Positions 12,589-31,329 are shown, numbered from the stretch's first letter. The stretch: DNA of 32,000 nt from Microcystis aeruginosa NIES-843 (GCF_000010625.1 NC_010296.1:2490001-2522000), one strand, 5' to 3'. The notes: generated from the sequence alone by a model not told the origin. A program made the numbers and translations.

Positions 12589-13548
12589 GTGAAAACCATC
12601 TTTTGTCAAAAAATTATCTATTTTGAAAATTATAGGAACAGTCTCATGCTTTTAACTCCAAACTGTAACCCTCTTAACTCCCTTAACTTCTCTCATTCTA
12701 CGACTAACTTTCTTAATTCCGTCCCTCAGCAAGAAATAGCTGAATCCATATCTGTTATTCAATATTTAATCAATCAAATCCCTGAATCTGTATTGTGGAT
12801 CGATTCCCAAGGACGGATTAAGCATTACAATGATGCGGCTTGTGCTTTATTGGGACATTCCAGAGAACAGTTATCTAATTTGACTATAGAAGAAGCTGCT
12901 CAAGATTTTTTAAACTCAGATTGGTCCAGATACTGGAAATTAATTCAACGTCGAGGTTTTGGACGTTTGATCACACACCATCCTTATTATGAGGATCATC
13001 AATCCCTCGATATTACGGTTAACTTTCTCAAATATGGAGATCAGGATTATATAAGCATAGTAGCTCGTTCTTTAAATTTTCTAGAATCTGAAAAAGATGG
13101 CTACGCTTGCAGAATTCATCCTTCTGTTAACTCAAAACAAGCTCCTCAATCGTTGATACAGCGTTCTTCTAACCCTCAACCGAATTTCTTTGATTCTTTG
13201 GCTTCTTTCTACCCTGATAGTTCTCAATTAAAACCAGTTTTTGAGTTTATTGAGGCAAATTATAGTCAACCCATTACCCTCAATGATGTGGCTGGATCGG
13301 CTGGTTATTCTCCTGCTTATTTAACCAATTTAGTTAAGCGTCGCACCGGCAAAACGATTATTCATTGGATTGTGGAACGAAGAATGCTAGAAGCCCAATC
13401 CTTGTTACTGAAAACCCATGAGTCAATTACCAAAATTGCCGCCACCGTTGGGTTTACTGACCCCTATTATTTTTCCCGTCGCTTTAGTCAGTTACATAAA
13501 GTATCTCCTAAACGTTGGCGAGAAAAATATCAAACTCAAGTAGCTTAA
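12589..13548 (+). CDS. PAS-domain / AraC-family (HTH_18) transcriptional regulator, 319 aa from the GTG; the true start may be the ATG at 12646
   Basis: The N-terminal half is PAS-like (SVLWIDSQGRIKHYNDAACALLGHSREQLSNLTIEE). The C-terminus carries the AraC double HTH (ITLNDVAGSAGYSPAYLTNLVKRRTGKTIIHWIVERRMLEAQSLLLKTHESITKIAATVGFTDPYYFSRRFSQLHKVSPKRWRE). Confidence 0.8.
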   Translation: MKTIFCQKIIYFENYRNSLMLLTPNCNPLNSLNFSHSTTNFLNSVPQQEIAESISVIQYLINQIPESVLWIDSQGRIKHYNDAACALLGHSREQLSNLTIEEAAQDFLNSDWSRYWKLIQRRGFGRLITHHPYYEDHQSLDITVNFLKYGDQDYISIVARSLNFLESEKDGYACRIHPSVNSKQAPQSLIQRSSNPQPNFFDSLASFYPDSSQLKPVFEFIEANYSQPITLNDVAGSAGYSPAYLTNLVKRRTGKTIIHWIVERRMLEAQSLLLKTHESITKIAATVGFTDPYYFSRRFSQLHKVSPKRWREKYQTQVA

Positions 13549-14167: not shown

Positions 14168-14452
14168 AATTTTTACCTAGTAACTAGCAACTTAACTTTG
14201 TTACCTTTTATTGTAAGAAAAAAGGAGTTGAAATTTAATGGATAATATTTTGTATTGTCTGCTAGGTTTTTCGATTATATTTATATGGTAAAAATGTACT
14301 AAATTTGGCCATAAAAAATAGGAATAAAAAAAATCCAGTTTTGGCGAAAAATAAAACATGGCTGATCAATGGGTAGAGGAATAAACTAGGAATATAAGTT
14401 AAGCAATCTTAGGTTGCTACAACACTTTTTTCACGTTAAAGGAACTTAACCC

Positions 14453-14716
14453 ATGATGACAACTGTTCAATCTCCTTGTACCGTTGAAGACATTCAAAAC
14501 TGGCTCGTTGATCAGTTTGCTCAACAACTCGATGTTGACCTTGATGACATTGATATTGAAGAACCTTTTGATAATTATGAACTCGACTCACGAAAAGCGT
14601 TAGTTTTATTAGGACGCTTAGAAAAATGGCTCGGAAAGGAATTAAATCCTGTGGTCATTTTTAACTATCCCACCATTGCTGAATTAGCAACCCGATTAGG
14701 GGAATTATATCTTTAA
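14453..14716 (+). CDS. Free-standing acyl/peptidyl carrier protein, 87 aa
   Basis: The phosphopantetheine-site motif is YELDSRKAL (Ser46, 14588-14590), followed by FNYPTIAELATRL, which is typical of PKS-type ACP helix III. It is the first gene of the co-directional cluster. Confidence 0.85.
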   Translation: MMTTVQSPCTVEDIQNWLVDQFAQQLDVDLDDIDIEEPFDNYELDSRKALVLLGRLEKWLGKELNPVVIFNYPTIAELATRLGELYL

Positions 14717-14778
14717 CTTTTTCTTGTATTCTTTCTTATTCACTCTATTCCTCATCACATTTTAGGAGAATTTCACCA

Positions 14779-16575
14779 ATGGTTACGACTGACACAAAAG
14801 TTTATGATGTTGTGATTATGGGAGCAGGTTTCGCCGGGGTCTGTCAAGCAAGACACTTACTTCTAAATGTTCCCAACATTAAAATTGCACTGATCGATCC
14901 TCGTCCAGAAGAAAGAACTAATAAAGACCTCAAAATTGGCGAATCAATGGTGGAAATTGCCACCCTATTTGTTTGCAAAGAATTGGGGTTATACGAATAT
15001 ATGATCGAAAATCATCCTCCCAAATTTGGACTAAACTTCCATTGGCCGAAAAAGAAGGACAAAACGACTACCACTGATGATTATTATCATATTTGGAATA
15101 ATCGTCAACCGCCTTTGGCTTCCTTTCAAATGAACCGGGCAAAATTTGAACGGGATCTCCTAAAAATGAATAAAGCGATGGGAGCAACTTTTTATCAAGG
15201 TCGAGTTGTAGATGTTGATTTAACCTCAAAAGATGAACTCAAAACCGTTATCGCTAAAGTCGAAAATGAACAGATAACTCTCAAAGCAAAGCACGTTATT
15301 GATGCCGCAGGACGGAAGTTTATTATTGGTCAAAAAACCGATAATCTCCTATTTGGAGCAGATAATCTTTTTGGACTTGATACCGGTTCTGTTTGGGTTA
15401 GAGTTAACAATATTGATCGCACCATTTTTCACGATGGTTATGATCCTTATGGTACAACTTGTAGCCATTACTATGCAACCAATCATTGGTTCGGTCATGG
15501 TCATTGGTTATGGATGATTCCTACCGAGAAGGATAGTCAAGAAATTTCCATTGGCATTGCTTATCATCGTTCAGCGATCGCTGATAAGCAAATTAATACA
15601 AAAGAGAAATTCTATGCTTTCTTAAAAGCCAATCATGAAATTCTTTATCGTTTAGTTAATAGTGGTGAAAATATTGATTTCCATTATTTACCGCGACCTT
15701 CTCATACAAGCAAAACCATGTTTTCAGCCGATAATTGGTATGTAATTGGAGATGCAGCTTGTATTTTTGATCCTTTTTATTCTTTGGGATCTAGCATGAT
15801 TTCCTATCAAATTGAATGTACGACAGAAATTATTCGCAGTAAATTAGTAGGAGAAGCTATTGGCGAGAAAAAACAAGCGGCGTACAATGATTTTATCCTA
15901 ACTTACACGCGGTTTAATAACCATCTAATCAAACATCATGATCAACAGTTAGGAGATGCCAGTATTATGAGTTGGCGGATCTATCATGATTATATCTGGT
16001 GGTTTGGTGTCCAAGTTCCGATGTACACGGGAAAATGGTTTTTAGATTTAGATTTTCTCACCCGATATACTCCTGGTTTAAAAGAACATCAAATGGGGTA
16101 TTGTGAACATCTTTATCAGCAATTTAACGAAGTCATCGCTCAGGGCAAAAATTTAGGGTTTATGGATTGTCATCGAGGAGATCAACTTTGGGGTGATTAT
16201 CATACCTTAAAACATTTTGATGATTTTGTTGAAAATGCCAAACTTGAACCCAGACGGTGTAATGTTTTTGCTTGTATGAAAACCACTAATTTTTATACAG
16301 CCATTTGGTATGCTAATTTTCTCTGGAAAGGGTTTGGAGTCACTGCTTTTGTTAAACCGAAGAATCTTTTCTACTTACTGAAGCACTTACAAGGGGTAAT
16401 ACAAGCGGACATCGCAGAAAGAGTTTATAAACATTTCACCAAAGGAATTCCCTCCAATCGCAAAATTGCGGAAATGCGTCAAGAGTTTACCACCTATCAC
16501 TATCAGCCAGAACTTAATTCGTGGGAACAAGAAACAGCACCTTTAGCTTCTCAAAAAATTACAGTTACTGTTTAA
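14779..16575 (+). CDS. Flavin-dependent halogenase, paralog 1, 598 aa
   Basis: It has GxGxxG (VVIMGAGFAG, 14821-14838), Lys in DLKIGES (K52), WxWxIP (GHWLWMIP, 15505-15522) and FxxPxxSxG (IFDPFYSLG, 15766-15789). An RBS aggag lies 8-12 nt upstream. Confidence 0.85.
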   Translation: MVTTDTKVYDVVIMGAGFAGVCQARHLLLNVPNIKIALIDPRPEERTNKDLKIGESMVEIATLFVCKELGLYEYMIENHPPKFGLNFHWPKKKDKTTTTDDYYHIWNNRQPPLASFQMNRAKFERDLLKMNKAMGATFYQGRVVDVDLTSKDELKTVIAKVENEQITLKAKHVIDAAGRKFIIGQKTDNLLFGADNLFGLDTGSVWVRVNNIDRTIFHDGYDPYGTTCSHYYATNHWFGHGHWLWMIPTEKDSQEISIGIAYHRSAIADKQINTKEKFYAFLKANHEILYRLVNSGENIDFHYLPRPSHTSKTMFSADNWYVIGDAACIFDPFYSLGSSMISYQIECTTEIIRSKLVGEAIGEKKQAAYNDFILTYTRFNNHLIKHHDQQLGDASIMSWRIYHDYIWWFGVQVPMYTGKWFLDLDFLTRYTPGLKEHQMGYCEHLYQQFNEVIAQGKNLGFMDCHRGDQLWGDYHTLKHFDDFVENAKLEPRRCNVFACMKTTNFYTAIWYANFLWKGFGVTAFVKPKNLFYLLKHLQGVIQADIAERVYKHFTKGIPSNRKIAEMRQEFTTYHYQPELNSWEQETAPLASQKITVTV

Positions 16576-16642
16576 TCGTTTGGAAATTCATCGAGTCTTT
16601 GCTAAATTACTTATTTCATTTCGTATCAGGAGAATTTGAACA

Positions 16643-18442
16643 ATGGTTGCTACTAACACTAATGAGTATGATGTTGTGATTATGGGAGCAGGTTTTGCTG
16701 GGGTCTGTCAAGCAAGACACTTACTTCTAAATGTTCCCAACATTAAAATTGCACTGATCGATCCTCGTCCAGAAGAAAGAACTAATAAAGACCTCAAAAT
16801 TGGCGAATCAATGGTGGAAATTGCCACCTTATTTGTTTGCAAAGAATTGGGGTTATACGAATATATGATCGAAAATCATCCCCCTAAATATGCTCTTAAT
16901 TTTCATTGGGCAAAAGATGCAGATAAAACTGACACCATTGATGATTATTATCATATTTGGGCGAATCGACAATTTCCCCTTGGCACGTTTCAAATGAATC
17001 GGGCAAAGTTTGAACGGGATTTGCTCAAAATGAATAAGAAAATGGGAGCAAGTTTCTATCAAGGGCGTGTGGTTGATGTGGACATTACTCCTACTGATGA
17101 GATGCACACCGTCAAAGTTAAAATGATTGACGGAAATTATCACGAACTGAGAGCAAAACACCTTGTTGATGCAGCAGGACGTAAGTTTATTATTGGCCAT
17201 AAAACTGATAACGTTATTGTAGGTGCAGATAATTTATTTGGAGTTGATACGGGATCGGCTTGGGTACGGGTTAAAAATATAGATCGCACCATTTTTCATG
17301 ATGGTTATGACCCTTATGGAGCAACTTGTAGCCATTACTATGCAACCAATCATTGGTTTGGTCATGGTCATTGGTTATGGATGATTCCCACAGAAAAAGA
17401 CTCCCAAGAAATCTCTATTGGAATTGCTCAACATCGCAGTGTTATCGCCAACGACCAAATTAATACTCAAGAGAAGTTTTATGCTTTCCTAAAAGCCAAT
17501 CACAATCTACTTTATCGCTTAGTCACCTCTGGCGAAAATGTCGATTTTCATTATCTTCCTAGAGTTTCCCATACTAGCAAAACGATGTTTTCTCAAGATA
17601 ATTGGTATGTAGTTGGAGATGCTGCTTGTATTTTTGATCCCTTTTACTCTTTGGGAACAAGTATGATTGCTTTTGCGATTGAAAGTATCACGGAAATTAT
17701 TCGTTCTCAACTTGCAGGAGAAGCGGATACAGAAGAAAAACGGGCTGCTTACAATGACTTTAACCTTACCTATACTCGATTGAATAATCATCTCATTGAA
17801 CACCATGATAAACAATTAGGTCATGCTAGTATCATGAGTTGGCGTATTTATGCCGAATATATGTGGTGGTTTGGGATTCAAATTCCCCTTTATGTCGGCA
17901 AATGGCATTTAGATACTGGCTTTATTTCCCGTTATGTGCCAAAAGTTCAAGCGGATATAAAAGGATATTGGCATCATCTCTATGAACAATTTAACCAATT
18001 AGTTGAGCAGAATAAAAATATTGGTTTTATGGATGCTCATCGTACTGATCAATTAATCTGGGGTTATCATACCCTCAAACACTTCGATGACTTTATCGAA
18101 AACACTAAATTTGAACCAAGACGGTGCAATGTTTTCGCTGGAATTAAAGCGACCAGTTTTTATACAGCAGTTTGGTATGCAAAGTTCCTCTGGAAAGGAT
18201 TTGGTTTTTCAGCTTTTCTCAATCCAAAAAATCTGTCCTATCTGTTTGGACATCTTAATGGCGCAGTTCAATCTGCCATTACGGAAATGGTCTATAAATA
18301 TTTGACTCGTAAGCTTTCTGATAATAGCCAAATTGAACAAACTCGCCAAGAATTTACCAACTATCGTTATCGTCCTCAACTAAATCCTTGGGTAAAAAAA
18401 GAAGTAAAAAGATCGCCCGAAAAAATACCTATTATTGTCTAA
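16643..18442 (+). CDS. Flavin-dependent halogenase, paralog 2, 599 aa
   Basis: It carries the same four motifs as paralog 1 (VVIMGAGFAG, DLKIGES, GHWLWMIP, IFDPFYSLG). The two are collinear along their whole length. The RBS context is near-identical (caggagaatttgaacaATGg versus taggagaatttcaccaATGg). Confidence 0.85.
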   Translation: MVATNTNEYDVVIMGAGFAGVCQARHLLLNVPNIKIALIDPRPEERTNKDLKIGESMVEIATLFVCKELGLYEYMIENHPPKYALNFHWAKDADKTDTIDDYYHIWANRQFPLGTFQMNRAKFERDLLKMNKKMGASFYQGRVVDVDITPTDEMHTVKVKMIDGNYHELRAKHLVDAAGRKFIIGHKTDNVIVGADNLFGVDTGSAWVRVKNIDRTIFHDGYDPYGATCSHYYATNHWFGHGHWLWMIPTEKDSQEISIGIAQHRSVIANDQINTQEKFYAFLKANHNLLYRLVTSGENVDFHYLPRVSHTSKTMFSQDNWYVVGDAACIFDPFYSLGTSMIAFAIESITEIIRSQLAGEADTEEKRAAYNDFNLTYTRLNNHLIEHHDKQLGHASIMSWRIYAEYMWWFGIQIPLYVGKWHLDTGFISRYVPKVQADIKGYWHHLYEQFNQLVEQNKNIGFMDAHRTDQLIWGYHTLKHFDDFIENTKFEPRRCNVFAGIKATSFYTAVWYAKFLWKGFGFSAFLNPKNLSYLFGHLNGAVQSAITEMVYKYLTRKLSDNSQIEQTRQEFTNYRYRPQLNPWVKKEVKRSPEKIPIIV

Positions 18443-18555
18443 ATTTGGGTTAATCACTTAGGCATAGGTAAAAGATAACATCAAAAATCACAAGATAGCA
18501 TCTTTTACCTTTAACCCTACGCAATTACTGTCTATTAATTACGGATATCTCAACT

Positions 18556-21500
18556 ATGAAACCTATTGCAATTATTGGAATTGGCTGTCGTTTTCCTAAA
18601 GCGAATAATTATCATGAATTCTGGCAATTATTATCAAAGGGAATTGACGGCATCACCGAAATTCCTAAGGAGCGCTGGAATATTGATGAATATTATGATG
18701 AGAATCCCGAAACACAGGGGAAAATGAATTCTCGTCATGGGGGATTTTTATCGCAAGTTGATGGGTTTGATCCTAATTTTTTCGGGATTTCTCCTAGAGA
18801 AGCCTTATTAATGGACCCTCAGCAACGCTTACTCTTAGAAGTAGCTTGGGAAACCATTGAAGATGCAGGAATAACACGGGAACAATTGGCAGGATCGAAA
18901 ACAGGTGTATTTGTGGGAATTGCCACAAACGATTATAGTCGCATTCATGCAGGATATAGCCACCATCCCCAAGGCTATGATTTAACAGGAAACTGCACAA
19001 ATATCGCAGCCGGTCGTCTTTCCTATCTTTTTAACTTAAAAGGTCCTAGTTTAGCGGTAGATACGGCTTGTTCTTCCTCTTTGGTCGCAGTGCATCTCGC
19101 TTGTCAAAGTTTATGGAATGATGAGTCTTCAATGGCGATCGCAGCAGGGGTTAACCTGATTTTATCCCCTATTGGTCATATTGCGTTAAGCAAATTGAAA
19201 GCCTTGTCTCCTGATGGACGTTGCAAAACCTTTGATGAAAGCGCCAATGGATATGTGCGAAGTGAGGGAGTCGGTTGTATTATTCTCAAACCGTTGGCTC
19301 AAGCGATCGCAGATAAGGATTCCATTTATGCGTTAATTAGAGGAACTGCTATTAATCATGATGGACGCAGCAAGGGGTTAACGGTTCCCTATGGACCGGC
19401 ACAAGAAAGCTTGATTCGATCAGCCTTGAAAAATGCCGAAATTGAGCCAAAAGAGCTTAATTATGTGGAATTACACGGGACGGGAACATCTTTAGGCGAT
19501 CCCATCGAAGCGATGGCCTTGGGAGCTGTGTTAGAAGAAGGACGAGACAAGGATAATCCTTGTTTGGTGGGATCGGTAAAAAGTAATATAGGACATCTCG
19601 AAGCAGCGGCAGGAATTGCCAGTGTGATTAAGATGGCACTTTCCCTGAAAAACAAGCAAATTCCGCCCAGTCTGCATTTTAACAAGCCGAATCCTTATAT
19701 TCCCTTTGATAAGTTACCCCTTAAGCTTCAATCATCTTTAATTACCTGGCCACAACAGGAAACAACCGCCAAGGGGGGAATTAGTTCTTTTGGATTTTCG
19801 GGAACAAACGCTCATCTTATCTTAGAAGAAGCTAATTTATCTCACCCAGAACCAATTTCCTTAACTTTCCCTCATTTACTCCCTTTATCTGCCCATAGTC
19901 AAGAAGCGGTTAGAGATTTAGCTCAAAATTATGAAGATTTCCTGAAAGATCAAGCTTTAACCGCTGAATTTGTCCAGAATCTTTGCTATAGTGCTAGTGC
20001 AAGACGGACTCATCATGCTCATCGTCAGGCGGTTGTGGTTCATTCTCATGAGGAATTATTGAAGGGTTTAAAAGAGTTAGAAACGATTGATTTATCGACT
20101 CAATCTAAGCCTTCAAAACGTAAAACAAACATTGCTTTTGTCTTTTCTGGCCAAGGACCTCAATGGTGGGCAATGGGACGGGAATTATTAGCAACAGAAC
20201 CGGTTTTTCGCTCTGTTATTAAACAATGTGATACTTTGATTCAAAAGTATGCTAACTGGTCATTATTAGCGGAATTTAATGCGTCTGAAGCTCAATCTCG
20301 TTTACAAGAAACAGAAGTTTCTCAACCTGCTTTATTCGCTTTACAAGTTGGATTAGCTAAATTATGGCAATCTTGGGGGATTAATCCTAAATCTGTGGTT
20401 GGTCACAGCTTGGGAGAAGTTGCAGCCGCCCATTTTGCGGGAATTCTAACTCTTGAGGAAGCCATTCATTTGATTTGTCAGCGCGGACAGTTGATGCAGC
20501 AAGCAACAGGAAATGGAAAAATGCTTGCGATTGAATTACCTGTTAATGAGGTAGAAAATTTAATGGCTGCTTGGGAAAATAAATTAGAAATTGCTGCCAT
20601 TAATAGTCCCTATTCAACGGTTGTATCTGGGGAGTCTCAATCGATCGATCAATTAATTGCTGAATTGTCCCAAAACCGTCCCGATATTTTTTCCAAAGAA
20701 CTACCTGTTAATTATGCTTTTCATAGTCAACAAATGACTACTTTTGCGGATAATTTAGTTAAAAAATTAGGAGAGCTTCAGCCTCAAAAAAGCACCATAC
20801 CAATTTTCTCAACCGTAACAGGTGATCAACAAGAGGGGACATTATTTAATGCCGCTTATTGGGGACAAAATATGCGTCAGACGGTACGTTTTAACCCTGC
20901 TATTGAAGCAATGATTAAATCTCGTCATACTATCTTTGTTGAAATCAGCCCCCATCCTGTTTTATTGGGATATATTAAAAGTACCTTACGAGAACAAGAT
21001 ACTGAGGGATTTGTTTTACCCTCTCTAAGACGAGAACATTCTGAACGGGGAACGCTATTAAATTCTTTAGGAAAGCTCTACACTTGGGGACATTCGATTA
21101 ATTGGGAAAAATTATATCCCGAAAATTGTCAGTTTGTTAAGTTACCGCTTTATCCTTGGCAACATGAATCTTATTGGGTAAGTGATGCTAAACCTCAATT
21201 TAAGTCTGTTTCGTCTGCTTCTAGTTTACTTAATTTATTAGTTGAAGGCAAAACTGAACAACTAACGGAACAGTTAAATCAAAGTGATCAATTATCACCT
21301 GAAGTCAAGCAGTTTTTACCGCAATTATTACAGTTATTGGTGGGAGAAGATACAACAATAGCAGGCCAGATGCCTATCCTACAGGATGTGAGTAAAAACT
21401 GTTACAAAGTGGAATGGCAACTCAGTCCTTTAAACTTAAAAAATAAGCCTTCTCAAGGAGAACGGTGGTTAATTTTTAATGATAATCAAGTAGTCGGTAA

Positions 21501-23289
21501 AGCCTTAGCAACAACCCTAAATGATGCTTATGTTTTGGTGTCTTCTGGTCAAACTTATCAGAAGTTGGTGTCAGGTCATTATCAAATTAATCCTAATAAT
21601 GTTAAGGATTTTCAACGGTTGTTACAAGATCTAACTGAACCAATCACCAAAGTGGTCTATTTATGGGGGTTAGACAGCGATATTAACTCCCAACCCTCTC
21701 AAACTCGTTCTTATGCCAGTTTATTGTATCTAACACAAGCTTTAGCTCAATTTAAAACTAAAGAACCCCCTAAACTTTGGGTCATAACACAACAAGCACA
21801 ACCGGTGAATGATGCTGTTAAACCGCTTAAAATAGCGCAAACGTCCTTATGGGGAATGGGTCAAGTCATTGCCCTTGAATATCCTAATTTATGGGGAGGA
21901 TTGATTGATTTAGAAGAAAAACAACCATCGTCTCAAGCAATTATTGCTGAAATAACAGAAAATCTAGGAGAAGATCGCATCGCTTTTCGGGATCATCAAC
22001 GATATGTTGCCCGTTTAGTACCTAATAAAGCAATAAAAAGCTCAAACATCAATTTTAAGAAGACAGAAGCCAGTTATCTCATTACTGGTGGCTTAGGCTC
22101 TTTAGGATTAAGTTTAGCAGATTGGTTAATTGAAAAAGGTGCCAATCATTTAATCTTAACCAGTCGGCGAGCCTTAGCTGACCATTCAACGGATAAACAG
22201 GTAAAAATCAAAGCTTTAGAGGATAAAGGGGCTACTATTCAAGTAATTGCCGCTGATGTCAGTGATCATCAACAAACCCGTCAACTTTTTCACCAAATTC
22301 AAGAAAATTGTCCTCCCTTACAGGGTATTATTCACGCAGCAGGGGTTTTGAGCGATCGCACCATTGACAAGATGGATTTCCATTGTTTTGAGAGCGTATT
22401 TAATCCTAAAGCAGCAGGAGCGTGGAATTTACACCAACTTTCTCAAGATTTATCCTTAGATTTCTTTGTTTGTTTCTCTTCCATGTCTGCTTTAATCGGA
22501 TCACGAGGTCAAATTCACTATGCTGCTGCCAACCATTTCTTAGATGGTTTAATGCACTACCGTCGGGAGTCTGGACTCACAGGGTTAAGCATTAACTGGG
22601 GACCTTGGGCTCAAGGGGGAATGGCCACGCAAGGCTATGAAGAAGGCTTAAAACGCCTGGGAATCAATCCATTACAACCTAATTTAGCCCTAGATACTTT
22701 AGATGCTCTAATCAATGGTAATGTTACTCAAACAATGGTAGCAGAGATTGATTGGTCTAAGTTTAAAACGATTGTTGCAGCAAAAGGACGGGTGGCTTTC
22801 TTAGAAGCGTTATTCAAGCAAGATAAGGATAATTTTGTGCAAACGGTCGAGAATTTCCCCCAAACCATCCAAAAAAACCCTCCTCACCGACGAGTCACCC
22901 TATTAACCACTCGTTTACAGCAAGAAGTAGCGCAAGTCTTAGGAATTCACGGAGATACTTTACCAGATACTGATCAAGGGTTCTTTGAGATGGGAATGGA
23001 TTCTTTAATGTCCGTAGAACTGAAACATCGTCTAGAAGGCTTATTTTCTGTCTCTTTACCTTCTACCTTTGCTTTTGAGTATCCCACTATTGGTGATGTG
23101 GTGCAGTATTTTGTCCAAGAAGTATTTGCTTGGCAAGATAATTCAGAAAATTCTCAGATTTCTTCGGAAACCGAGTCAACGGATGTTGTAGTACTCAACC
23201 AAGCCCTTGCTGAATTGGAGTCACTTTCAGAAGCAGAAACAGAAGCTTTGATGGAACAGGAATTGGCGGAATTAGAAGCATTACTTTAA
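18556..23289 (+). CDS. Type I modular PKS, KS-AT-KR-ACP, 1577 aa, no loading module
   Basis: KS: DTACSSS (Cys172, 19069-19071), HGTGT, NIGHLEAAAG. AT: GHSLGE (Ser618, 20407-20409), YAFHS. KR: TGGLGSLG (22084-22107), HYAAAN, VLSD. ACP: GMDS (Ser1483, 23002-23004). The acidic helical C-terminal tail ELESLSEAETEALMEQELAELEALL looks like a docking domain. No DH HxxxGxxxxP motif was seen. Confidence 0.9.
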   Translation: MKPIAIIGIGCRFPKANNYHEFWQLLSKGIDGITEIPKERWNIDEYYDENPETQGKMNSRHGGFLSQVDGFDPNFFGISPREALLMDPQQRLLLEVAWETIEDAGITREQLAGSKTGVFVGIATNDYSRIHAGYSHHPQGYDLTGNCTNIAAGRLSYLFNLKGPSLAVDTACSSSLVAVHLACQSLWNDESSMAIAAGVNLILSPIGHIALSKLKALSPDGRCKTFDESANGYVRSEGVGCIILKPLAQAIADKDSIYALIRGTAINHDGRSKGLTVPYGPAQESLIRSALKNAEIEPKELNYVELHGTGTSLGDPIEAMALGAVLEEGRDKDNPCLVGSVKSNIGHLEAAAGIASVIKMALSLKNKQIPPSLHFNKPNPYIPFDKLPLKLQSSLITWPQQETTAKGGISSFGFSGTNAHLILEEANLSHPEPISLTFPHLLPLSAHSQEAVRDLAQNYEDFLKDQALTAEFVQNLCYSASARRTHHAHRQAVVVHSHEELLKGLKELETIDLSTQSKPSKRKTNIAFVFSGQGPQWWAMGRELLATEPVFRSVIKQCDTLIQKYANWSLLAEFNASEAQSRLQETEVSQPALFALQVGLAKLWQSWGINPKSVVGHSLGEVAAAHFAGILTLEEAIHLICQRGQLMQQATGNGKMLAIELPVNEVENLMAAWENKLEIAAINSPYSTVVSGESQSIDQLIAELSQNRPDIFSKELPVNYAFHSQQMTTFADNLVKKLGELQPQKSTIPIFSTVTGDQQEGTLFNAAYWGQNMRQTVRFNPAIEAMIKSRHTIFVEISPHPVLLGYIKSTLREQDTEGFVLPSLRREHSERGTLLNSLGKLYTWGHSINWEKLYPENCQFVKLPLYPWQHESYWVSDAKPQFKSVSSASSLLNLLVEGKTEQLTEQLNQSDQLSPEVKQFLPQLLQLLVGEDTTIAGQMPILQDVSKNCYKVEWQLSPLNLKNKPSQGERWLIFNDNQVVGKALATTLNDAYVLVSSGQTYQKLVSGHYQINPNNVKDFQRLLQDLTEPITKVVYLWGLDSDINSQPSQTRSYASLLYLTQALAQFKTKEPPKLWVITQQAQPVNDAVKPLKIAQTSLWGMGQVIALEYPNLWGGLIDLEEKQPSSQAIIAEITENLGEDRIAFRDHQRYVARLVPNKAIKSSNINFKKTEASYLITGGLGSLGLSLADWLIEKGANHLILTSRRALADHSTDKQVKIKALEDKGATIQVIAADVSDHQQTRQLFHQIQENCPPLQGIIHAAGVLSDRTIDKMDFHCFESVFNPKAAGAWNLHQLSQDLSLDFFVCFSSMSALIGSRGQIHYAAANHFLDGLMHYRRESGLTGLSINWGPWAQGGMATQGYEEGLKRLGINPLQPNLALDTLDALINGNVTQTMVAEIDWSKFKTIVAAKGRVAFLEALFKQDKDNFVQTVENFPQTIQKNPPHRRVTLLTTRLQQEVAQVLGIHGDTLPDTDQGFFEMGMDSLMSVELKHRLEGLFSVSLPSTFAFEYPTIGDVVQYFVQEVFAWQDNSENSQISSETESTDVVVLNQALAELESLSEAETEALMEQELAELEALL

Positions 23290-23353: not shown

Positions 23354-26300
23354 ATGGGTTCTCATCACCAGAAAACAGAATTAACGCCGTTACAAAAAGC
23401 AGTTATTGCGCTTAAAGAAGCTCGTAACAAGATTGAAGCCTTAGAACGGCAAAAAAATGAACCGATCGCTATTATTGGCATGGGGTGTCGTTTTCCGGGG
23501 GGTGCAAATAGTCCAGAGGCGTTTTGGGAGCTATTATCAAGGGGAAAAGAAGCAATTGTCCCTGTTCCTAGCCAAAGATGGGATGCGGAGGCTTATTATG
23601 ACGAAAATCCCGATCTTCCTAACAAAACTTATGCTCGTTATGGCGGGTTTCTTGACGCAGTAGATCAATTTGATCCGCAATTTTTCGGGATGACTCCCCG
23701 GGAGGCGATCGCACTAGACCCTCAACAACGATTATTATTAGAGGTAAGTTGGGAAGCGTTAGAAAATGCCGGAATTGCACCTCAGAAGCTGACAGGGACG
23801 CAAACAGGCGTATTTGTGGGCATTGGCTTGGATGATTACGCAAAACGGCAAATTAAGCAACAAATTCCCATTGATGCTTATACGGGATCAGGAAATGCGT
23901 TTTGTTTCGCTTCAGGTCGCTTATCCTATTTTTTAGGGCTACAAGGACCCAGTTTAGCCATTGATACCGCCTGTTCTACCTCTTTAGTCACGGTACATCT
24001 GGCTTGTCAAAGCTTACGCAACAGAGAGTCAAATTTAGCTTTAGCAGGGGGAGTTAGTTTAATGCTATCCCCGGAGGTGACGTTATATCTTTCTAAAACC
24101 CGCGCTTTGTCCCCTGATGGTCGTTGTAAAACCTTTGATAAAGATGCAAATGGCTATGTGAGAGGGGAAGGCTGTGGAATGGTGGTCTTAAAACGCTTTT
24201 CTGATGCTATAAGCGATGGAGATAACATTTTAGGGGTAATTAGAGGCTCGGCGGTCAATCAAGATGGCCCCAGTAGTGGTTTAACGGTTCCCAATGGATC
24301 AGCGCAAATGGCAGTTATTCGTCAAGCATTGGAGAATGCAAAAGTAAAACCCGAACAAATTAGCTATTTAGAAGCACACGGGACAGGAACAGCCTTAGGC
24401 GACCCTATTGAAGTACGGGGGATTAACAATATCCTATGCAAAGATCGTTCCACTGATAACCCCTTAATGGTAGGTTCAGTAAAAACGAATATCGGCCACC
24501 TAGAAATTGCAGCAGGGATGGCCAGCCTATTAAAAGTCATTTTATCCCTAAAAAATCAAGAAATCCCCCCCCATCTTCATTTTAAAGAACTTAATCCTGA
24601 TTTAGCGGCTGCTGCAACCGCTCTCAAAATTCCTACCGCTTCTCTGCCTTGGCAGCGAACAGAAGAACCTAGAAGGGCTGGAATTAGTGCATTTGGATTA
24701 AGTGGCACAAATGCCCACATTATCATCGAAGAACCGCCTCAATTAAGCTTTAATCCTTCTGAAGTGGATCGTCCTGCTCATTTACTCACTCTATCAGCGA
24801 AAAGCGACGATGCTTTAGATGATTTAGCGCAAAAATGGGTCAACTATTTAGAGAAAAATCCTCAATTAAACCTAGCAGACTTAGCTTTTAGTGCCAACAC
24901 GGGACGAGGACAATTTAACCATCGTCTGGCAATTTTGGCAAAATCAACCCTTGAAGCCAAGGACTCTTTAACAGCATTTACGCAAAAACAACCTTGTTTG
25001 AATGTTTTAAGCCAAGCAGTTGCAAAAAGTCGTCAAAATAAGATTGCTTTCTTGTTTACAGGACAAGGTTCTCAGTATGCAGACATGGGACGACAACTGT
25101 ATGAAACTCAACCCACCTTTCGTCACGCCTTAGAGGAATGCGATCGCTTATTGCAACCTTACCTAGAAAAGTCCTTATTAGAGGTTTTATACAGTGATTC
25201 TAGCTTATTAGACCAAACTGCTTATACTCAACCCGCCTTATTCGCCATTGAATACGCATTATATAAATTATGGCAGTCTTGGGGCATTAAACCTGATGGG
25301 GTTTTAGGTCATAGTGTGGGGGAATATGTGTCCGCTTGTGTTGCAGGGGTTTATTCTCTCGAAGAGGGAATCAAGTTAATTGCCGAAAGAGGACGCTTAA
25401 TGCAGTCTTTACCCCAAAAAGGCGCAATGGCAGCCATATTTGCCCCTATTGAAACAGTAAAATCTGTTATTTCTCCTTATGGGGATCAAGTTGAGATTGC
25501 AACTATCAATAGTTCGGAAAATATTGTTATTTCGGGTGATCAGGAAGCAATTAATCAGATTAAAGCAGATTTAGAATCACAAAGCATTGAAGTGCGTCTG
25601 CTTAAGGTATCTCATGCTTTTCATTCCGGGATGATGCAACCGATATTAGCAGAATTTAAAGTGATCGCTGCTAAAATTAGCTATAAAACACCCCAATTAG
25701 ATTGGATTTCCACCGTAACAGGTGAAGAAATCAGCCAAGCAGTAACAGAGGACTATTGGTGTCAACAAGTGCGTCAATGCGTCCAATTTGCCCCAGCAAT
25801 AGAAACCTTAGCCAGCCAAGGTTATAATCTATTTATTGAAATCGGCTCTCATCCGATTTTAACGAGATTGGGTCAAAAAACCTTAGCAAACCCTGATTAT
25901 CTGTGGTTATCTTCCCTACAACGAGGACAGGATGATTGGCAAATTTTATTACAAAGTGTGGCGAAATTAGCCGTTTCTGGGGTTAATATTGATTGGAATG
26001 GCTTTGATAAAGATTATGCTCGTCTTCGTCTTCCTTTACCTACTTATGCTTTCCAAAAACAACCCTACTGGTTAACCGTAGAGGCGCCTGGTTTACGCCC
26101 AACCCAAGGGACAGAAACCGTAGAAGGGCAAGACTTACACCAAAGTCAAGAACGAGAAACTCTAGTGGCGCCAGGCTTGCGCCCAACCCAAAAACAAAAC
26201 GAAACCAAGGCTGAAAGCTTAGAAAGTCAATTAATTGCCTTAATAAGTCAAATTACGGGTTTAAATCCTCAGCAATTGAGTTTGAATGTTTCCTTAGAAG

Positions 26301-28177
26301 CAGATTTAGGGTTAGATTCTATTATGATGACCCAATTAATGAACGGGTTACTATCATTAATTCCTGAAGAGCAACGTAGTCAATTTAGTGAAACCTTTTC
26401 CCTACGCCATTTAATGCAAGTCTCCAATCTTCAGGAATTATTAACCATTATTCAATCTCATACTTCATCCCCCAAACCTCAAATCTCTAACCCTAAACCA
26501 CAAACCAAAAACCTCAAACCACAACCCTCGAATCTGGTTCCTATTCTCCATAGTCAAATTCCCTTGTTAATGAGTTATTGGAGTCTCAATTCTAATAGTT
26601 TATTTACTAAGGTTAAAATTGCAGGAGAATTTGACTTAAATATTGCTCAACAAGCATGGAAACTGTTAATTAATCGACATCCCATGTTACGGGCGCAATT
26701 TCAGATTCCAGAAGATGCAACCTGCTTTGCAGACTATCAATTAGAAGTGCTAGAAAATCCCATTCCTCCTGAAATTCTTGTTAAAGATTTCACCACTTTA
26801 ACTCCTGAGGAACAAGGGGAGAAAATTGAAGAAGAAATCTATCATTGGTTAAACTATAACTGGTCCTTAACGCAATGGCCGTTGCATGGATTTTCTGTTC
26901 TTAAATTATCTGATCAAATTCATCAATTATTTTTAGGGAATGAACACTTAATTTCGGATGGGTTAAGTAACCATGTCATGATGCGGGAATTCTTGGAAAT
27001 TTACCGGGCTATAGTTGCTAAAGAAACGCCAAATCTTCCCCCTACATTGACTGTAGAAGATTATCGAAAACAGGTTCAATTAATGAACGATTGGCAAGAT
27101 ATTGAGGAAGATCGAGCCTTAGCAGAATACAATAATGCTGTGTCTGGAATGTCCTATCGTTGGCAACCTAAACAGCAGAAAAATGCTCAAAAATCTCCTC
27201 TCTTTTACAATCAAAAGTATCTACTTTCAGCAGAAACTACCTCTCAATTAATCGACAAAACCCGTCAATGGCGAGTCCCGATGAATGCACTATTATTAGG
27301 TGCATTTATAAAAACTATGTCACAAATAGATTCAAAAGCTGAAAATATCGGAATTTCGATTCCCACCAGTGGACGAATTTACCCCGAAGTAGATGCAACA
27401 GGTGTGGTTAGTAGTTTTGCTCAAAATCTTGCATTAAGTTTTGCTAAACCTCAATCTGAGCAAGATTGGCCGACCTTTTTAAGCCAAATTCAGCAAACTG
27501 TACAACAACATATTGGCACCGGTTTAGATCGGGCGCAAACTCGTCAAATGGGAACAATTTTTCGAGACAATATTACCCTAGAAAAGGGTAAAATTCCCCC
27601 TCATAGTCTTTCTTTAATACAGGAGGCTTTAAAGTCTAATTTATACCTTCCTTATACGGGACAAACTCACCTGCAACCTCAGTATGATGCTTTATCAATT
27701 ACTGACTATCAAGCAGGAGGAATGAACGCAACTGGAACAATTGATATTTTGCAAGAAATATTTAATAATCGTCTTCATTTATTTGCAAGTTACGATTACC
27801 ATCACTTTGACTTATTGCTAATAGATCAATTAATGACAGCCTATGTCAGCCAAATTGAAGAACTAGCCAATTTACCCGTCCAAGATCAAGTTATTATTTC
27901 TCATTCTTCCTCTATTTCTCTTAATACAGAGATTGAAGAAATGCTACGACAAATAACTTCCGAAATTTGTCATTGGACAATTGAAGAAGACGAAATAAGT
28001 GATGATTTGGAGGCAGATTTAGGACTAGATTCTTTAGAACGCATTCGCCTTGTTACCAAGCTAGAAGGGATTTATGGCAAACAATATCGCCAAGACCTTT
28101 TAAATTGTCGTACCTTGCAAGAAATGGCTGCTATTTTAGCCCCATCTCAACCTTCAATCGTCAACAGCTATTCGTAA
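23354..28177 (+). CDS. Hybrid PKS/NRPS, KS-AT-ACP-C-T, 1607 aa, with no A domain between C and T
   Basis: The N-terminal coiled coil LTPLQKAVIALKEARNKIEALERQ looks like a docking domain. KS: DTACSTS (Cys207, 23972-23974), HGTGT, NIGHLEIAAG. AT: GHSVGE (Ser654, 25313-25315), HAFHS. ACP: LGLDS (Ser989, 26318-26320). The condensation-like domain has EHLISDG (His1198, 26945-26947). The terminal carrier has LGLDS (Ser1560, 28031-28033). Confidence 0.85.
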   Translation: MGSHHQKTELTPLQKAVIALKEARNKIEALERQKNEPIAIIGMGCRFPGGANSPEAFWELLSRGKEAIVPVPSQRWDAEAYYDENPDLPNKTYARYGGFLDAVDQFDPQFFGMTPREAIALDPQQRLLLEVSWEALENAGIAPQKLTGTQTGVFVGIGLDDYAKRQIKQQIPIDAYTGSGNAFCFASGRLSYFLGLQGPSLAIDTACSTSLVTVHLACQSLRNRESNLALAGGVSLMLSPEVTLYLSKTRALSPDGRCKTFDKDANGYVRGEGCGMVVLKRFSDAISDGDNILGVIRGSAVNQDGPSSGLTVPNGSAQMAVIRQALENAKVKPEQISYLEAHGTGTALGDPIEVRGINNILCKDRSTDNPLMVGSVKTNIGHLEIAAGMASLLKVILSLKNQEIPPHLHFKELNPDLAAAATALKIPTASLPWQRTEEPRRAGISAFGLSGTNAHIIIEEPPQLSFNPSEVDRPAHLLTLSAKSDDALDDLAQKWVNYLEKNPQLNLADLAFSANTGRGQFNHRLAILAKSTLEAKDSLTAFTQKQPCLNVLSQAVAKSRQNKIAFLFTGQGSQYADMGRQLYETQPTFRHALEECDRLLQPYLEKSLLEVLYSDSSLLDQTAYTQPALFAIEYALYKLWQSWGIKPDGVLGHSVGEYVSACVAGVYSLEEGIKLIAERGRLMQSLPQKGAMAAIFAPIETVKSVISPYGDQVEIATINSSENIVISGDQEAINQIKADLESQSIEVRLLKVSHAFHSGMMQPILAEFKVIAAKISYKTPQLDWISTVTGEEISQAVTEDYWCQQVRQCVQFAPAIETLASQGYNLFIEIGSHPILTRLGQKTLANPDYLWLSSLQRGQDDWQILLQSVAKLAVSGVNIDWNGFDKDYARLRLPLPTYAFQKQPYWLTVEAPGLRPTQGTETVEGQDLHQSQERETLVAPGLRPTQKQNETKAESLESQLIALISQITGLNPQQLSLNVSLEADLGLDSIMMTQLMNGLLSLIPEEQRSQFSETFSLRHLMQVSNLQELLTIIQSHTSSPKPQISNPKPQTKNLKPQPSNLVPILHSQIPLLMSYWSLNSNSLFTKVKIAGEFDLNIAQQAWKLLINRHPMLRAQFQIPEDATCFADYQLEVLENPIPPEILVKDFTTLTPEEQGEKIEEEIYHWLNYNWSLTQWPLHGFSVLKLSDQIHQLFLGNEHLISDGLSNHVMMREFLEIYRAIVAKETPNLPPTLTVEDYRKQVQLMNDWQDIEEDRALAEYNNAVSGMSYRWQPKQQKNAQKSPLFYNQKYLLSAETTSQLIDKTRQWRVPMNALLLGAFIKTMSQIDSKAENIGISIPTSGRIYPEVDATGVVSSFAQNLALSFAKPQSEQDWPTFLSQIQQTVQQHIGTGLDRAQTRQMGTIFRDNITLEKGKIPPHSLSLIQEALKSNLYLPYTGQTHLQPQYDALSITDYQAGGMNATGTIDILQEIFNNRLHLFASYDYHHFDLLLIDQLMTAYVSQIEELANLPVQDQVIISHSSSISLNTEIEEMLRQITSEICHWTIEEDEISDDLEADLGLDSLERIRLVTKLEGIYGKQYRQDLLNCRTLQEMAAILAPSQPSIVNSYS
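26075..26200 (+). repeat. Three in-frame 42-bp (14-aa) tandem repeats in the AT-ACP linker of the hybrid PKS
   Basis: The units are TVEAPGLRPTQGTE / TVEGQDLHQSQERE / TLVAPGLRPTQKQN. Units 1 and 3 share the GC-rich cores ggcgcctggtttacgccc (26083-26100) and ggcgccaggcttgcgccc (26167-26184). Confidence 0.85.
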
Positions 28178-28395: not shown

Positions 28396-31329
28396 ATGGC
28401 TTTTTCCCCCGAAATTCCCTACTATAAAATTATTAAACAAGCACAATTAACCCCTGATGCGATCGCTGTTTTAGATGAGACTTGTCCCCTAACTTATCAA
28501 CAATTAGACCATCTTTCTAATCAAGTTGCTGCTTATTTACAGACTCAAGGTGTTAACCCCAATACCAGAGTAGGAATTATGACGGAACGAAATCCAGGCA
28601 TGATTATTGGTATTTTGGGAATTCTTAAAGCAGGTGGCTGTTATGTACCCTTAGATCCCGATTATCCCGTCGAAAGATTGCGTTATATTCTTGATCATGC
28701 CACTATCGAGATTTTACTTACCGAACATCAAGTAAGTGAACAGTTAATTTCCTGTGTGACAGAACCTTTACCCTTGCAAACCGTCCTCTTTTTAGATGAA
28801 GGAGAAAGATTAAACAAAATTAATGATTTAACTCAGATTACCACTTCTATCTGGCAAAAACACAGTAAAGAATCCATAAATCTTTGTAATCGTCCTGAGG
28901 ATTTAATGGTAATTCTTTATACGTCTGGATCAACAGGACGGCCAAAAGGGGTAATGTTAAACCATCGCGGTTATATGAATCGTCTAGAATGGATGCAAAA
29001 GACATTTTCCCTGAAAACAGGCGATCGCGTTGCACAACGCACCTCTTTTTGCTTCGATATTTCCGTATGGGAAATTTTCTGGACGTTAATGGAAGGTGCA
29101 ACAATATGTCCCGTCAAACGCGAAGTAGTCTTAAATCCTTGGGAATTTGCTGCATGGATTAAAAAGACTAAAATTAATGTAATGCACTTTGTTCCCTCCC
29201 TCTTTGGGGAATTTATCAGTGCGATTGAAAACGAATCTTGGACATTTCCTGATCTACGCTGGTTAATCTTTAGTGGGGAAGCCTTACCCATGTCTTTTAT
29301 CCAAAAATGGCTTGATTGTTATGGATTAAAGACAGGTTTAGCCAATCTTTATGGACCGACAGAAGCCTCAATTGATGTGACTTACCATATTATTACAGAA
29401 CGTCCTGACGAACGCACCAGCAGCCAAATTCCCATCGGAAAAGCGATCGATAATGTCTATCTCAAAGTGTTGGATGATCAGATGCAACCGGTTAAACAAG
29501 GGGAAATGGGAGAACTTTGGCTTGGTGGCGTACAATTAGCATTAGGATACCTCAAAGATCCTGAAAAAACCGCTAAAGCGTTCTGTTCTAATCCTTTTTC
29601 TGATGTCTCTGGTGACTATATTTATCGGACAGGTGATCTAGTCAAGGAATTACCCGATGGTACGCTGGAATATCATGGACGTATCGATAATATGGTCAAA
29701 ATTCGGGGTTTTCGCATTGAATTAGGGGAAATTGAGAGCATCTTAACCACTCATCCCAATGTCCGCGAGGCCGCCGTTTTAGCTATTGATTACGGTGAAG
29801 GACAAAAACGATTAATTGCTTGTTTATCGGGGGATAAAATCAAAAACCGAGTTCTCAAAGCACATTTAGAGCAGAAACTCCCCCATTACATGATTCCTCA
29901 ACGATTCGCTTGGTTTCCACAACTTGCTAAGAATCATAACGGAAAGTTAGACCGTAAAGCATTAGCCGCCGAATTACTTCCTGCTCCCGCTGCTCCCGCT
30001 GCTCCCCCTACTCCTTCTCTTATACCCCTTGGACCGGCACAAAGTTGGTTAGTCAACTATTTTGAACCTCCCTATCAATGGTTGGGTTATACTCGTTTTC
30101 TCTATCATCAGTCTTTGAATCTTGATATTTTCAATCAAGCCGCTAATCTTTTGGTGCAACGTCATGAAGCTTTTCGGACGGTTTGCCTACAAAATCAAGG
30201 TAAATGGCAGCAATACTTGATCAATGATCCTCAACCTATCCTAGCAGAGTATTGGGATGGAAGCCACTTAACAGAAGCAGAACGTAATGCTAAAATCAAA
30301 GCTCAAATGTCAGATTTAGCTAAAACAATCCAGATTGACCGTTGGCCACTCACTGCCACTCTTGTTGTTAAAGTTAGTCCCTATTGCTACGATATTACGA
30401 TGGTCGCTCACCACATCATTGCCGATATGTTAAGTGCAACCATCTTGTTTAAGGAACTTTGGAGTGCCTATCATCAATTATTGGTAGGAAGTGATCCGAC
30501 TTTTCCTAACCCTAATCCTCAGTCTTACTTAGATTTTGTGCAAGTCTTGAGGGATGAGGAGAAAAAAGGAACAATGAACGAACACTTGAATTATTGGAAG
30601 GAACAATTTCCCGATGCAGAGAGTCGCTTTGAAGTCCCCGTCGATCATGTCAAAGGCCCAAATATTGAAGCTTCTGCCGAAAGTGCGCGATTTGTCCTAA
30701 GTAAAGCGCAAACTAAACAGTTATTAAGCCAAGGCAAGGCTTATTATCAGTCTAACTTTTATCCTATTCTCCTTGCTCCTTTATACCGTTTATTAGGTGA
30801 TTGGAGTCAACGCAAACAGGTGGTTATCAGTCATCGTAGTCATGGGCGAGATTTAGGCGAAGGTCAGTCTTTTATGGAAAGTATGGGCAATTATGCTGTA
30901 AATTTTCCCATAGGCATTAATTTATCCACTTCTACGACTTGGCAAAAAACTATCAGTACCATCAATGAGCAGTTTGAAAGCTTACCAATGAATGGCGTAA
31001 CTTATGATTGGATAGGTGAGTCTTTACCTGAATATCTCTATCCTGATAGTAATTTAACCCCAGTAAGGGCTAATTATCTGGGAAATCGTTCGGTTCCTCT
31101 CTCTGACTTGTTTGAGTTTGTTTATGGCGAGCGCGATTGTCGTTTATCGCCACTGGATCAAAAACGTACCACATTGATTGAATTCTTTTTCCTAATCATA
31201 GATGGTCAGTTAGAGATAAGAATTGAATATTCTCGTAATTTCCATCTTCCTACGACCATTCAAAAAATCGGACAAGATTATCTCATTCTTCTTGAGGAAT
31301 TAGAGCCTATTGGCGTTGCTGATTCGTAA
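28396..31329 (+). CDS. NRPS-like protein, adenylation domain fused to a condensation-like domain, with no carrier domain, 977 aa
   Basis: A-domain core motifs run in order: LTYQQLD, LKAGGCYVPLD, YTSGSTGRPKG (28918-28950), FDISVWE, NLYGPTE, GELWLGG, YRTGD, GRIDNMVKIRGFRIELGEIE, LPHYMIP, NGKLDRKAL. A Pro/Ala linker PAPAAPAAPPTPS (about 29976-30020) follows directly, then a C/E-like domain (PLGPAQSWL...; HHIIADMLS, His672-His673, 30409-30414). No GxDS / LGxDS carrier motif occurs anywhere in the protein. Confidence 0.85.
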   Translation: MAFSPEIPYYKIIKQAQLTPDAIAVLDETCPLTYQQLDHLSNQVAAYLQTQGVNPNTRVGIMTERNPGMIIGILGILKAGGCYVPLDPDYPVERLRYILDHATIEILLTEHQVSEQLISCVTEPLPLQTVLFLDEGERLNKINDLTQITTSIWQKHSKESINLCNRPEDLMVILYTSGSTGRPKGVMLNHRGYMNRLEWMQKTFSLKTGDRVAQRTSFCFDISVWEIFWTLMEGATICPVKREVVLNPWEFAAWIKKTKINVMHFVPSLFGEFISAIENESWTFPDLRWLIFSGEALPMSFIQKWLDCYGLKTGLANLYGPTEASIDVTYHIITERPDERTSSQIPIGKAIDNVYLKVLDDQMQPVKQGEMGELWLGGVQLALGYLKDPEKTAKAFCSNPFSDVSGDYIYRTGDLVKELPDGTLEYHGRIDNMVKIRGFRIELGEIESILTTHPNVREAAVLAIDYGEGQKRLIACLSGDKIKNRVLKAHLEQKLPHYMIPQRFAWFPQLAKNHNGKLDRKALAAELLPAPAAPAAPPTPSLIPLGPAQSWLVNYFEPPYQWLGYTRFLYHQSLNLDIFNQAANLLVQRHEAFRTVCLQNQGKWQQYLINDPQPILAEYWDGSHLTEAERNAKIKAQMSDLAKTIQIDRWPLTATLVVKVSPYCYDITMVAHHIIADMLSATILFKELWSAYHQLLVGSDPTFPNPNPQSYLDFVQVLRDEEKKGTMNEHLNYWKEQFPDAESRFEVPVDHVKGPNIEASAESARFVLSKAQTKQLLSQGKAYYQSNFYPILLAPLYRLLGDWSQRKQVVISHRSHGRDLGEGQSFMESMGNYAVNFPIGINLSTSTTWQKTISTINEQFESLPMNGVTYDWIGESLPEYLYPDSNLTPVRANYLGNRSVPLSDLFEFVYGERDCRLSPLDQKRTTLIEFFFLIIDGQLEIRIEYSRNFHLPTTIQKIGQDYLILLEELEPIGVADS

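Follow-up and report, generated by a model that had tools for sequence, protein, structure and literature searches.

Tandem flavin-dependent halogenase genes with the signature of gene conversion, and hybrid alleles, in the orphan MIC1 cluster of Microcystis aeruginosa

Interlocus gene conversion and non-allelic recombination are known from the ketosynthase (KS) domains of modular polyketide synthases (PKSs), from the mcy genes and from human tandem paralogue loci. In barbamide biosynthesis, the adjacent paralogous halogenases BarB1 and BarB2 act in turn on one carrier-bound substrate. Within Microcystis, the sporadic loss of the halogenase genes aerJ and mcnD was described by Cadel-Six et al. 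(2008) and ascribed to recombination and excision, and a Microcystis PKS cluster with several halogenase copies is mentioned in the same paper (PMC2515870). Here we analyse two tandem paralogous flavin-dependent halogenase genes, Hal1 and Hal2 (H1 and H2 in the names of hybrids), in a 32,000-nucleotide (nt) stretch of Microcystis aeruginosa NIES-843 (NC_010296.1:2490001-2522000), referred to as the window, in whose coordinates all positions are given. The pair heads the orphan PKS/nonribosomal peptide synthetase (NRPS) cluster MIC1 of this strain. Both the process and the enzyme family are known, and the pair is an unusually well-resolved case; the literature searched held no account of this pair, its conversion tract, the hybrid alleles or gene conversion in halogenases. 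Very probably, Hal1 and Hal2 are anciently duplicated PltA/CndH-like halogenases whose 5' ends were homogenised by conversion, and the single hybrid genes of other strains arose from such a pair by deletion. The features on which this rests are as follows.

14779..16575, + strand: Hal1, type-1 flavin-dependent halogenase, 598 amino acids (aa), from PF04820, motifs and PDB sequence and fold matches
14803..15017, + strand: tract 1, Hal1 copy, codons 9-80, encoding the GxGxxG through the GES motif
15457..15521, + strand: tract 2, Hal1 copy (...CSHYYATNHWFGHGHWLWMIP)
16576..16642, + strand: Hal1-Hal2 spacer, 67 nt, with the Hal2 ribosome-binding leader AGGAGAATTTGAACA
16643..18442, + strand: Hal2, type-2 flavin-dependent halogenase, 599 aa, from PF04820 and motifs
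16667..16881, + strand: tract 1, Hal2 copy, at a direct repeat spacing of 1864 bp
17324..17388, + strand: tract 2, Hal2 copy

Overall the two genes are 75.3% identical in nucleotides and 73.6% in amino acids. The first-pass annotation of this DNA had pointed to two stretches of near identity and had read both as gene conversion. The stretches are present as described, each with one mismatch: 182 nt in the core of tract 1 (14836-15017 versus 16700-16881; C/T at 14965) and 65 nt in tract 2 (15457-15521 versus 17324-17388; mismatch at 15492). At its maximal extent tract 1 covers 215 nt with three mismatches (14803-15017 versus 16667-16881). A permutation test was restricted to codons with a conserved, degenerate amino acid (414 codons, 64% identical; 100,000 permutations); tract 1 contained runs of 42 and 15 identical codons and the permutation maximum was 36 (P<1e-5), a local collapse of synonymous divergence beyond chance.

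The synonymous divergence (dS) of codons 9-80 is 0.09 between the paralogues of NIES-843 and 0.066 between those of a Microcystaceae metagenome-assembled genome (MAG), compared with 0.74-0.91 between orthologues. In codons 81-598 the paralogues stand at 1.6-1.9 and the orthologues at 0.8-0.9. The profile, which a uniform divergence would have left flat, therefore drops from 1.6 to 0.09 in the NIES-843 pair, and within tract 1 paralogues are closer than orthologues, with the reverse outside it, a pattern replicated in the MAG pair. Neighbour-joining trees with bootstrap were made from 13 homologues. Codons 9-80 group by lineage (all-Microcystis clade 1.0, MAG_H1 with MAG_H2 1.0, type clades 0), and codons 81-540 group by paralogue type (type-1 clade 1.0, type-2 clade 1.0). 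For the 182-nt tract the reading as conversion is thus borne out by the fall in dS, by tree incongruence with bootstraps of 1.0 in both directions and by recurrence in a second lineage, and this sequence evidence identifies tract 1 as a true gene-conversion tract (interlocus, non-allelic homologous exchange).

The second lineage is represented by the Microcystaceae MAG (locus L001), which has the same order AraC-ACP-H1-H2-PKS (ACP, acyl carrier protein). Its orthologues are about 85% identical to those of NIES-843 in nucleotides and its tandem carries a homogenised 5' tract of its own. The Hal2 leader AGGAGAATTTGAACAATGGTT is common to NIES-843 and the MAG and distinct from the leader that follows the ACP gene in the MAG, Cyanothece and Crocosphaera; the tandem therefore has one origin. 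These comparisons clearly indicate that codons 9-80 were homogenised independently in Microcystis and in the other Microcystaceae lineage, and that the remaining ~1.55 kb has been diverging since before the two lineages split. The tandem state is probably ancestral for these Microcystaceae clusters. A Crocosphaera MAG has a single type-2 body after a position-1 leader, and Cyanothece BG0011 has a single type-1-like gene.

Tandem halogenases are also found elsewhere in cyanobacteria, and none of 18 other cyanobacterial loci with two or three halogenase copies that were compared has a near-identical tract. Another tandem pair from this halogenase family (L030, L033-L036) occurs in Nostoc minutum NIES-26, Anabaena subtropica, Dendronalium, and Nostoc and Nostocales MAGs, with 86-90% identity in codons 9-80 and about 75% overall, which could reflect weaker or older 5' homogenisation, or constraint only. 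Three loci (L031 from M. aeruginosa LEGE 91341, L032 and L027) have three tandem copies of remoter family members, with 50-60% identity to Hal1 and no identity tracts longer than about 70 nt.

Most other sampled Microcystis strains have one halogenase gene, often an H1(5')::H2(3') hybrid. In strain PCC 9807, which matches the window at 98% identity with full synteny, there is one halogenase gene, in which the upstream region, leader and first codons are H1-like and the body is H2-like. Its crossover lies within 14803-14831, at the edge of tract 1, and there the offset of the alignment moves by one whole repeat unit, exactly 1864 bp. In T1-4 the switch is inside the ribosome-binding site. For M. 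panniformis FACHB-1757 the allele (50 indexed blocks of the contig collection) reads as type 1 as far as 15454 and as type 2 from 15492 onwards, which places the crossover in 15455-15491 (tract 2). Strains LSC13-02, W13-18 and S464 are type 1 up to about 16446-16451, followed by a type-2 tail and the downstream spacer.

Every hybrid gene body has the polarity H1(5')::H2(3'), as is predicted if one unit is lost from a tandem by recombination between the copies. The PCC 9807 and FACHB-1757 genes show this polarity together with the loss of one repeat unit, in frame, at a breakpoint in shared identity. In the alignments the hybrids correspond to the loss of exactly one 1864/1867-bp repeat unit, and their breakpoints fall at the ribosome-binding site, within tract 1 or tract 2, or close to the 3' end. 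The single hybrids would be deletions made by recombination between the two copies. Type-2-to-type-1 switches are confined to the 5' end: S464 and FACHB-1757 have them in the leader, and P0132 has one up to about residue 154. They resemble conversions of Hal1 by Hal2 that are anchored at the 5' end and vary in length. Counting all of these, the halogenase locus has at least five genotypes: the tandem pair, the type-2 gene and three H1::H2 hybrids.

Two further observations were made on the 3' ends of these genes. The type-1 alleles of LSC13-02 and S464 (compared with window 16230-16575) are 96-100% identical to NIES-843 Hal1 until about codon 450; their codons ~480-550 are 61-82% identical to the NIES-843 copies, with the best match in Cyanothece BG0011 (76%), and are followed by the type-2 tail, so that these codons form a segment of third origin. 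Two variants, A in NIES-843 Hal2, T1-4 and LSC13-02, and B in PCC 9807 and S464, exist of the 3' tail of type 2 with the spacer leading to the PKS gene (18380-18560); this spacer is 378 bp in PCC 9807 instead of 113 bp.

The alternative that survives best is that types 1 and 2 are alternative alleles of a single-copy locus, that recombination between strains, ending in conserved sequence, makes the mosaics and disseminates a single lineage-specific 5' end, and that the NIES-843 tandem is secondary, two alleles having been joined recently, with its tract as a scar. In its favour, one gene is the state of most sampled Microcystis genomes, the 5' tracts of Microcystis are 94-98% identical irrespective of type, and some mosaics contain the segment of third origin. 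The tandem junction had no match in a scan of JGI metagenome contigs with a 24-mer from the H1-H2 spacer, and recombination is known in Microcystis biosynthetic genes (PMC2515870). However, the distant MAG (85% identical in nucleotides) has the same tandem order, the H2 leader and its own homogenised tract, and non-allelic exchange is the only way in which the second copy of a tandem can have its 5' end homogenised. Allelic exchange also predicts two-way switches, but the hybrid bodies run one way, from H1 to H2. We regard this explanation as unlikely as the origin of the pair, although recombination between alleles of different strains has certainly also contributed to the mosaics, which is to be counted against a history of conversion and deletion only.

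It is very improbable that the 5' segments are kept alike with no recombination, by nothing but purifying selection on the protein or an RNA or DNA element. Residues 9-80 are indeed the most conserved part of the protein, with a non-synonymous divergence (dN) between orthologues of 0.02-0.03. However, of about 47 synonymous sites in codons 9-80, 22-25 differ between orthologues and 3-4 between the paralogues of one genome. The tract 1 sequence differs by 12-14% between lineages, mostly at synonymous sites, and constraint at the nucleotide level is therefore excluded. The tree of the segment follows lineage and not paralogue type. Together with the permutation test, these results refute selection alone for tract 1.

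For tract 2 selection does hold, and the proposal that this 65-nt stretch is a second conversion tract was rejected. With tract 1 masked, its run of 10 identical codons is non-significant (P about 0.4-0.5 by permutation), and its paralogue dS of 0.22, from only 10.7 synonymous sites, is not distinct from the 0.35-0.52 between orthologues. The region is almost invariant in nucleotides in 13 of 13 homologues, including those of Moorena, whose sequences are only 68-72% identical to the Microcystaceae genes across codons 81-598. Constraint therefore accounts for tract 2, which gives no evidence of conversion.

An assembly artefact, in which repeat collapse or a mis-join mimics a tandem with identical 5' ends, is hardly conceivable: beyond the general point that short repeats can mislead assemblers nothing specific favours it, the NIES-843 genome is finished and its assembly was checked against the insert lengths of bacterial artificial chromosomes (PMC2779907), three independent metagenome assemblies repeat the NIES-843 tandem and its pattern of mismatches at 99.9-100% identity, and an unrelated MAG has the same architecture.

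Both proteins match PF04820 (Trp_halogenase; 50.3 bits for Hal1 and 50.2 for Hal2, cut-off 21). The motif set given in the first-pass annotation stands for GxGxxG (GAGFAG at residues 15-20 in both) and WxWxIP (WLWMIP at 243-248 in Hal1 and 244-249 in Hal2), which are invariant among 59 relatives; a literal FxxPxxSxG is absent, and the segment in both proteins reads GDAA...FDPFYSLG, which is FxPxxSxG. An AlphaFold2 (AF2) model of the halogenase (pLDDT 83, pTM 0.86) has as its top Foldseek matches PltA, ChlB4, FasV, PltM, CndH and CmlS (E about 1e-18 to 1e-21), and with Bmp2 and Mpy16 these are the nearest solved structures by sequence and predicted fold. The ratio dN/dS against the MAG orthologue is about 0.08 for Hal1 and about 0.06 for Hal2, and Hal2 is 97-99% identical in amino acids to the single gene of PCC 9807 and T1-4. 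Neither copy has lost its catalytic motifs, and these data identify both as intact and under purifying selection, with neither decaying; the annotation of two intact tandem paralogous flavin-dependent halogenases is thereby supported by family, motifs, fold and selection, and both enzymes are predicted to be functional. A halogenase 75% identical to Hal1 also lies on a contig binned as Candidatus Gracilibacteria SU_1_2 (L013), which is probably a mis-binned cyanobacterial contig.

The lysine of KIGES (residues 52-56 in both proteins) had been named as the signature lysine, and as the catalytic residue it was rejected in favour of K82. In the alignment with PltA the KIGES lysine pairs with a histidine, and K82 (in PPKF/PPKY) aligns with the second lysine of the PltA 'PKKFG' and is invariant in 59 family members. 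The catalytic lysine of halogenases is expected ~25-30 residues past the GE(S/A) motif, and from knowledge of PltA, PrnA and CndH we take K82 to be that residue; no text on PltA K73 was found in the literature searched. The earlier description of homogenised FAD-binding and active-site parts (FAD, flavin adenine dinucleotide) goes too far: tract 1 takes in only residues 9-80, from the ADP-binding beta-alpha-beta fold to the GES loop, and its end lies two codons short of K82.

The 64 fixed type-specific residues are concentrated in 81-200 and 401-480, with none in residues 1-80. The first of them directly follow tract 1 (F83/Y83 and G84/A84, the rest of the family being invariant for G84), and each type has altered some positions that are otherwise conserved across the family. 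Together with the strong purifying selection on both types, these residues speak for a divergence in function, which the first-pass annotation had proposed as a possible difference in regiochemistry, substrate or halide. The end of the tract at codon 80 may have one of two causes. Longer conversions may have been selected against, as the type-specific residues start at 83/84 beside K82, or the drop in identity may halt heteroduplex extension.

Carrier dependence is inferred from the 87-aa carrier protein encoded upstream and from the carrier-dependent enzymes among the closest PDB relatives, and is therefore putative. The ACP neighbour is retained in the window and in the MAG, Cyanothece, Crocosphaera and Moorena loci. 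Hal1 and Hal2 would be co-transcribed behind this discrete carrier protein, and both enzymes would halogenate the intermediate bound to it, one after the other or at separate positions; the congeners made would then be halogenated differently in strains with one gene, two genes or a hybrid.

Several points count against the account of an old, functionally diverged tandem shaped by conversion and deletion. The exclusive (W_H1, W_H2) clade of the two NIES-843 copies in the 5' region has a bootstrap of only 0.32, since the tract is almost identical in every Microcystis allele of either type, and the 5' tree accordingly leaves the timing and number of conversion events inside Microcystis unfixed. 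The LSC13-type 3' breakpoint (about 16446-16451) lies in low-identity sequence, which fits deletion less cleanly, and is preceded by a segment unlike either NIES-843 copy that a simple deletion does not explain. Within Microcystis the tandem was found only in NIES-843-like sequences: the two metagenome scans, one for its junction and one with the C-terminal peptide of the true type 1, gave nothing closer, the second returning only three distant loci. Functional divergence of the copies is tempered by the fact that one gene, often a hybrid, suffices in most Microcystis strains. Any assignment of a substrate, a halide, carrier dependence or an order of action is a deduction, and MIC1 is still an orphan cluster (PMC3741299; PMC12838216).

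The halogenase genes stand in an operon-like row on the + strand (PAS/AraC regulator, carrier protein, Hal1, Hal2, PKS, hybrid PKS/NRPS and A-C protein), which consists of the following genes besides the pair.

12589..13548, + strand: PAS/AraC-type regulator, upstream of the ACP gene in every syntenic locus
14453..14716, + strand: stand-alone carrier protein, 87 aa, phosphopantetheine (PP)-binding, with an 'LDS' phosphopantetheine site, from open reading frame (ORF) and translation
18556..23289, + strand: type I PKS (KS-AT-KR-ACP; AT, acyltransferase; KR, ketoreductase), next in the operon after Hal2
23354..28177, + strand: hybrid PKS/NRPS (KS-AT-ACP-C-PCP; C, condensation; PCP, peptidyl carrier protein)
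28396..31329, + strand: NRPS protein with adenylation (A) and condensation domains

The carrier protein gene is directly upstream of the halogenases. Its syntenic 87-aa orthologues in L001, L002 and L004 carry the PP-binding annotation, and its NCBIfam match is the N-terminal ACP of Pks13. On the opposite strand, upstream of the row, are RND/HlyD efflux genes and transposase debris. Polyunsaturated fatty acid (PUFA)-synthase-like genes for KS-AT-ACP, KR-DH (DH, dehydratase) and FabA-FabA proteins follow downstream, outside the window (L050, L051). A promoter and terminator scan of 14100-18700 gave nothing exceeding shuffled expectation, and the Hal1-Hal2 spacer has no terminator-like site. The NIES-843 genome paper lists a 'PKS of unknown function' at 2,508,556-2,513,289, equal in length to the ORF 18556-23289 (PMC2779907). 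The orphan cluster MIC1 was described as neighbouring genes for NRPS and PKS with RND transporters, with NIES-843 as reference strain (Humbert et al. 2013; PMC3741299), and in a 2026 review such clusters are still without a linked product (PMC12838216). No account of a MIC1 product was found in the literature searched.

Other observations concern the rest of the cluster and its edges. The NRPS functions are unusually split, with the KS-AT-ACP-C-PCP protein (23354-28177) followed by the A-C protein (28396-31329), which has no PP-binding match between its adenylation and condensation domains. A 172-aa ORF without a family match (13649-14167, - strand) lies between the AraC regulator and the ACP gene, and its position is kept in all Microcystis MIC1 loci examined (L004, L054-L059, L063-L064). 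Perfect 229-nt direct repeats (756-984 and 3685-3913) flank a DDE transposase (1678-2946) and a truncated IS605 OrfB/TnpB fragment (3014-3403), and after the A-C gene the arms at 31533-31746 are 76-80% complementary to them; together they look like repeats of the miniature inverted-repeat transposable element type that bracket the cluster. Compared with PCC 9807, the window has an additional segment of ~1.1-1.3 kb within 10265-11790. It holds ORF 10798-11574, which encodes a secreted-looking protein of 258 aa with a hydrophobic C-terminal tail and no Pfam match, and its edges are direct repeats of 195 nt (97%) and 55 nt; 80-nt and 44-nt repeat copies are also present at 7468-7615.

MIC1 is a long-standing orphan cluster of the main freshwater bloom-forming cyanobacterium, and the halogenase genotypes should be a key for finding its product and the role of each enzyme. 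As an evolutionary example, conversion and selection have split a gene into a cofactor module that is homogenised and specificity regions that have diverged, and the same homology then drives gene loss and fusion. The natural hybrids mark junctions at which halogenases tolerate recombination, which is of use in enzyme engineering. A more speculative and unlikely extension is that the 5' tract is kept as a recombination hinge, by which polyploid Microcystis would switch, with appreciable frequency, between two-, one- and hybrid-halogenase states and hence between MIC1 halogenation chemotypes. Were this true, the natural hybrids would show modularity, with an exchangeable FAD module (residues 1-80 or 1-225) and a specificity module, and would provide a ready map of permissive crossover points for halogenase engineering.

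Among described enzymes, Hal1 and Hal2 resemble PltA (5DBJ), CndH (3E1T), CmlS (3I3L), ChlB4 (7FCO), Mpy16 and Bmp2 in the FAD fold of the p-hydroxybenzoate hydroxylase (PHBH) type and in GxGxxG and WxWxIP. They share with the carrier-dependent halogenases of solved structure the aligned lysine of the PltA 'PKKFG' and an adjoining carrier protein gene. However, they are only 15-21% identical to these structures, and they exceed PltA in length by about 150 aa, with a C-terminal region (residues about 336-570) that is helical and confidently modelled.

Closer to home, AerJ, McnD and ApdC (~590 aa, in NRPS clusters) belong to the same superfamily and the same genus and are likewise variable in presence between strains; the closeness of Hal1 and Hal2 to AerJ and McnD is presumed. 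The present locus differs in having two tandem paralogues in a PKS-led cluster with a discrete ACP (ACP-Hal-Hal-PKS), and its losses have left in-frame hybrid genes and not the clean excisions of aerJ and mcnD. Microcystis and Nostocales are rich in relatives at about 60% identity; one of them, the Microcystis locus L026 (61% identity), was considered as an aer/mcn cluster and proved to be another orphan context. The homologue of Moorena producens JHB is 76% identical and also lies behind an ACP gene. No acyl-ACP synthetase or desaturase was called upstream of it, it is at most a candidate JamD, and profile matches of the window genes include no JamA- or JamB-like genes.

As a recombining locus, the pair is like known cases of conversion between tandem paralogues in its patch of synonymous near-identity, its tree incongruence and its deletion hybrids that break in identity tracts. 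It is unlike them in that the genes encode tailoring halogenases and in that a 72-codon segment has been homogenised twice with a shared 3' boundary beside the presumed catalytic lysine. BarB1 and BarB2 are similarly adjacent paralogues by a carrier protein and may serve as a model for successive halogenation by Hal1 and Hal2; they are non-haem iron/2-oxoglutarate enzymes and not flavin-dependent, so that the likeness would be functional only.

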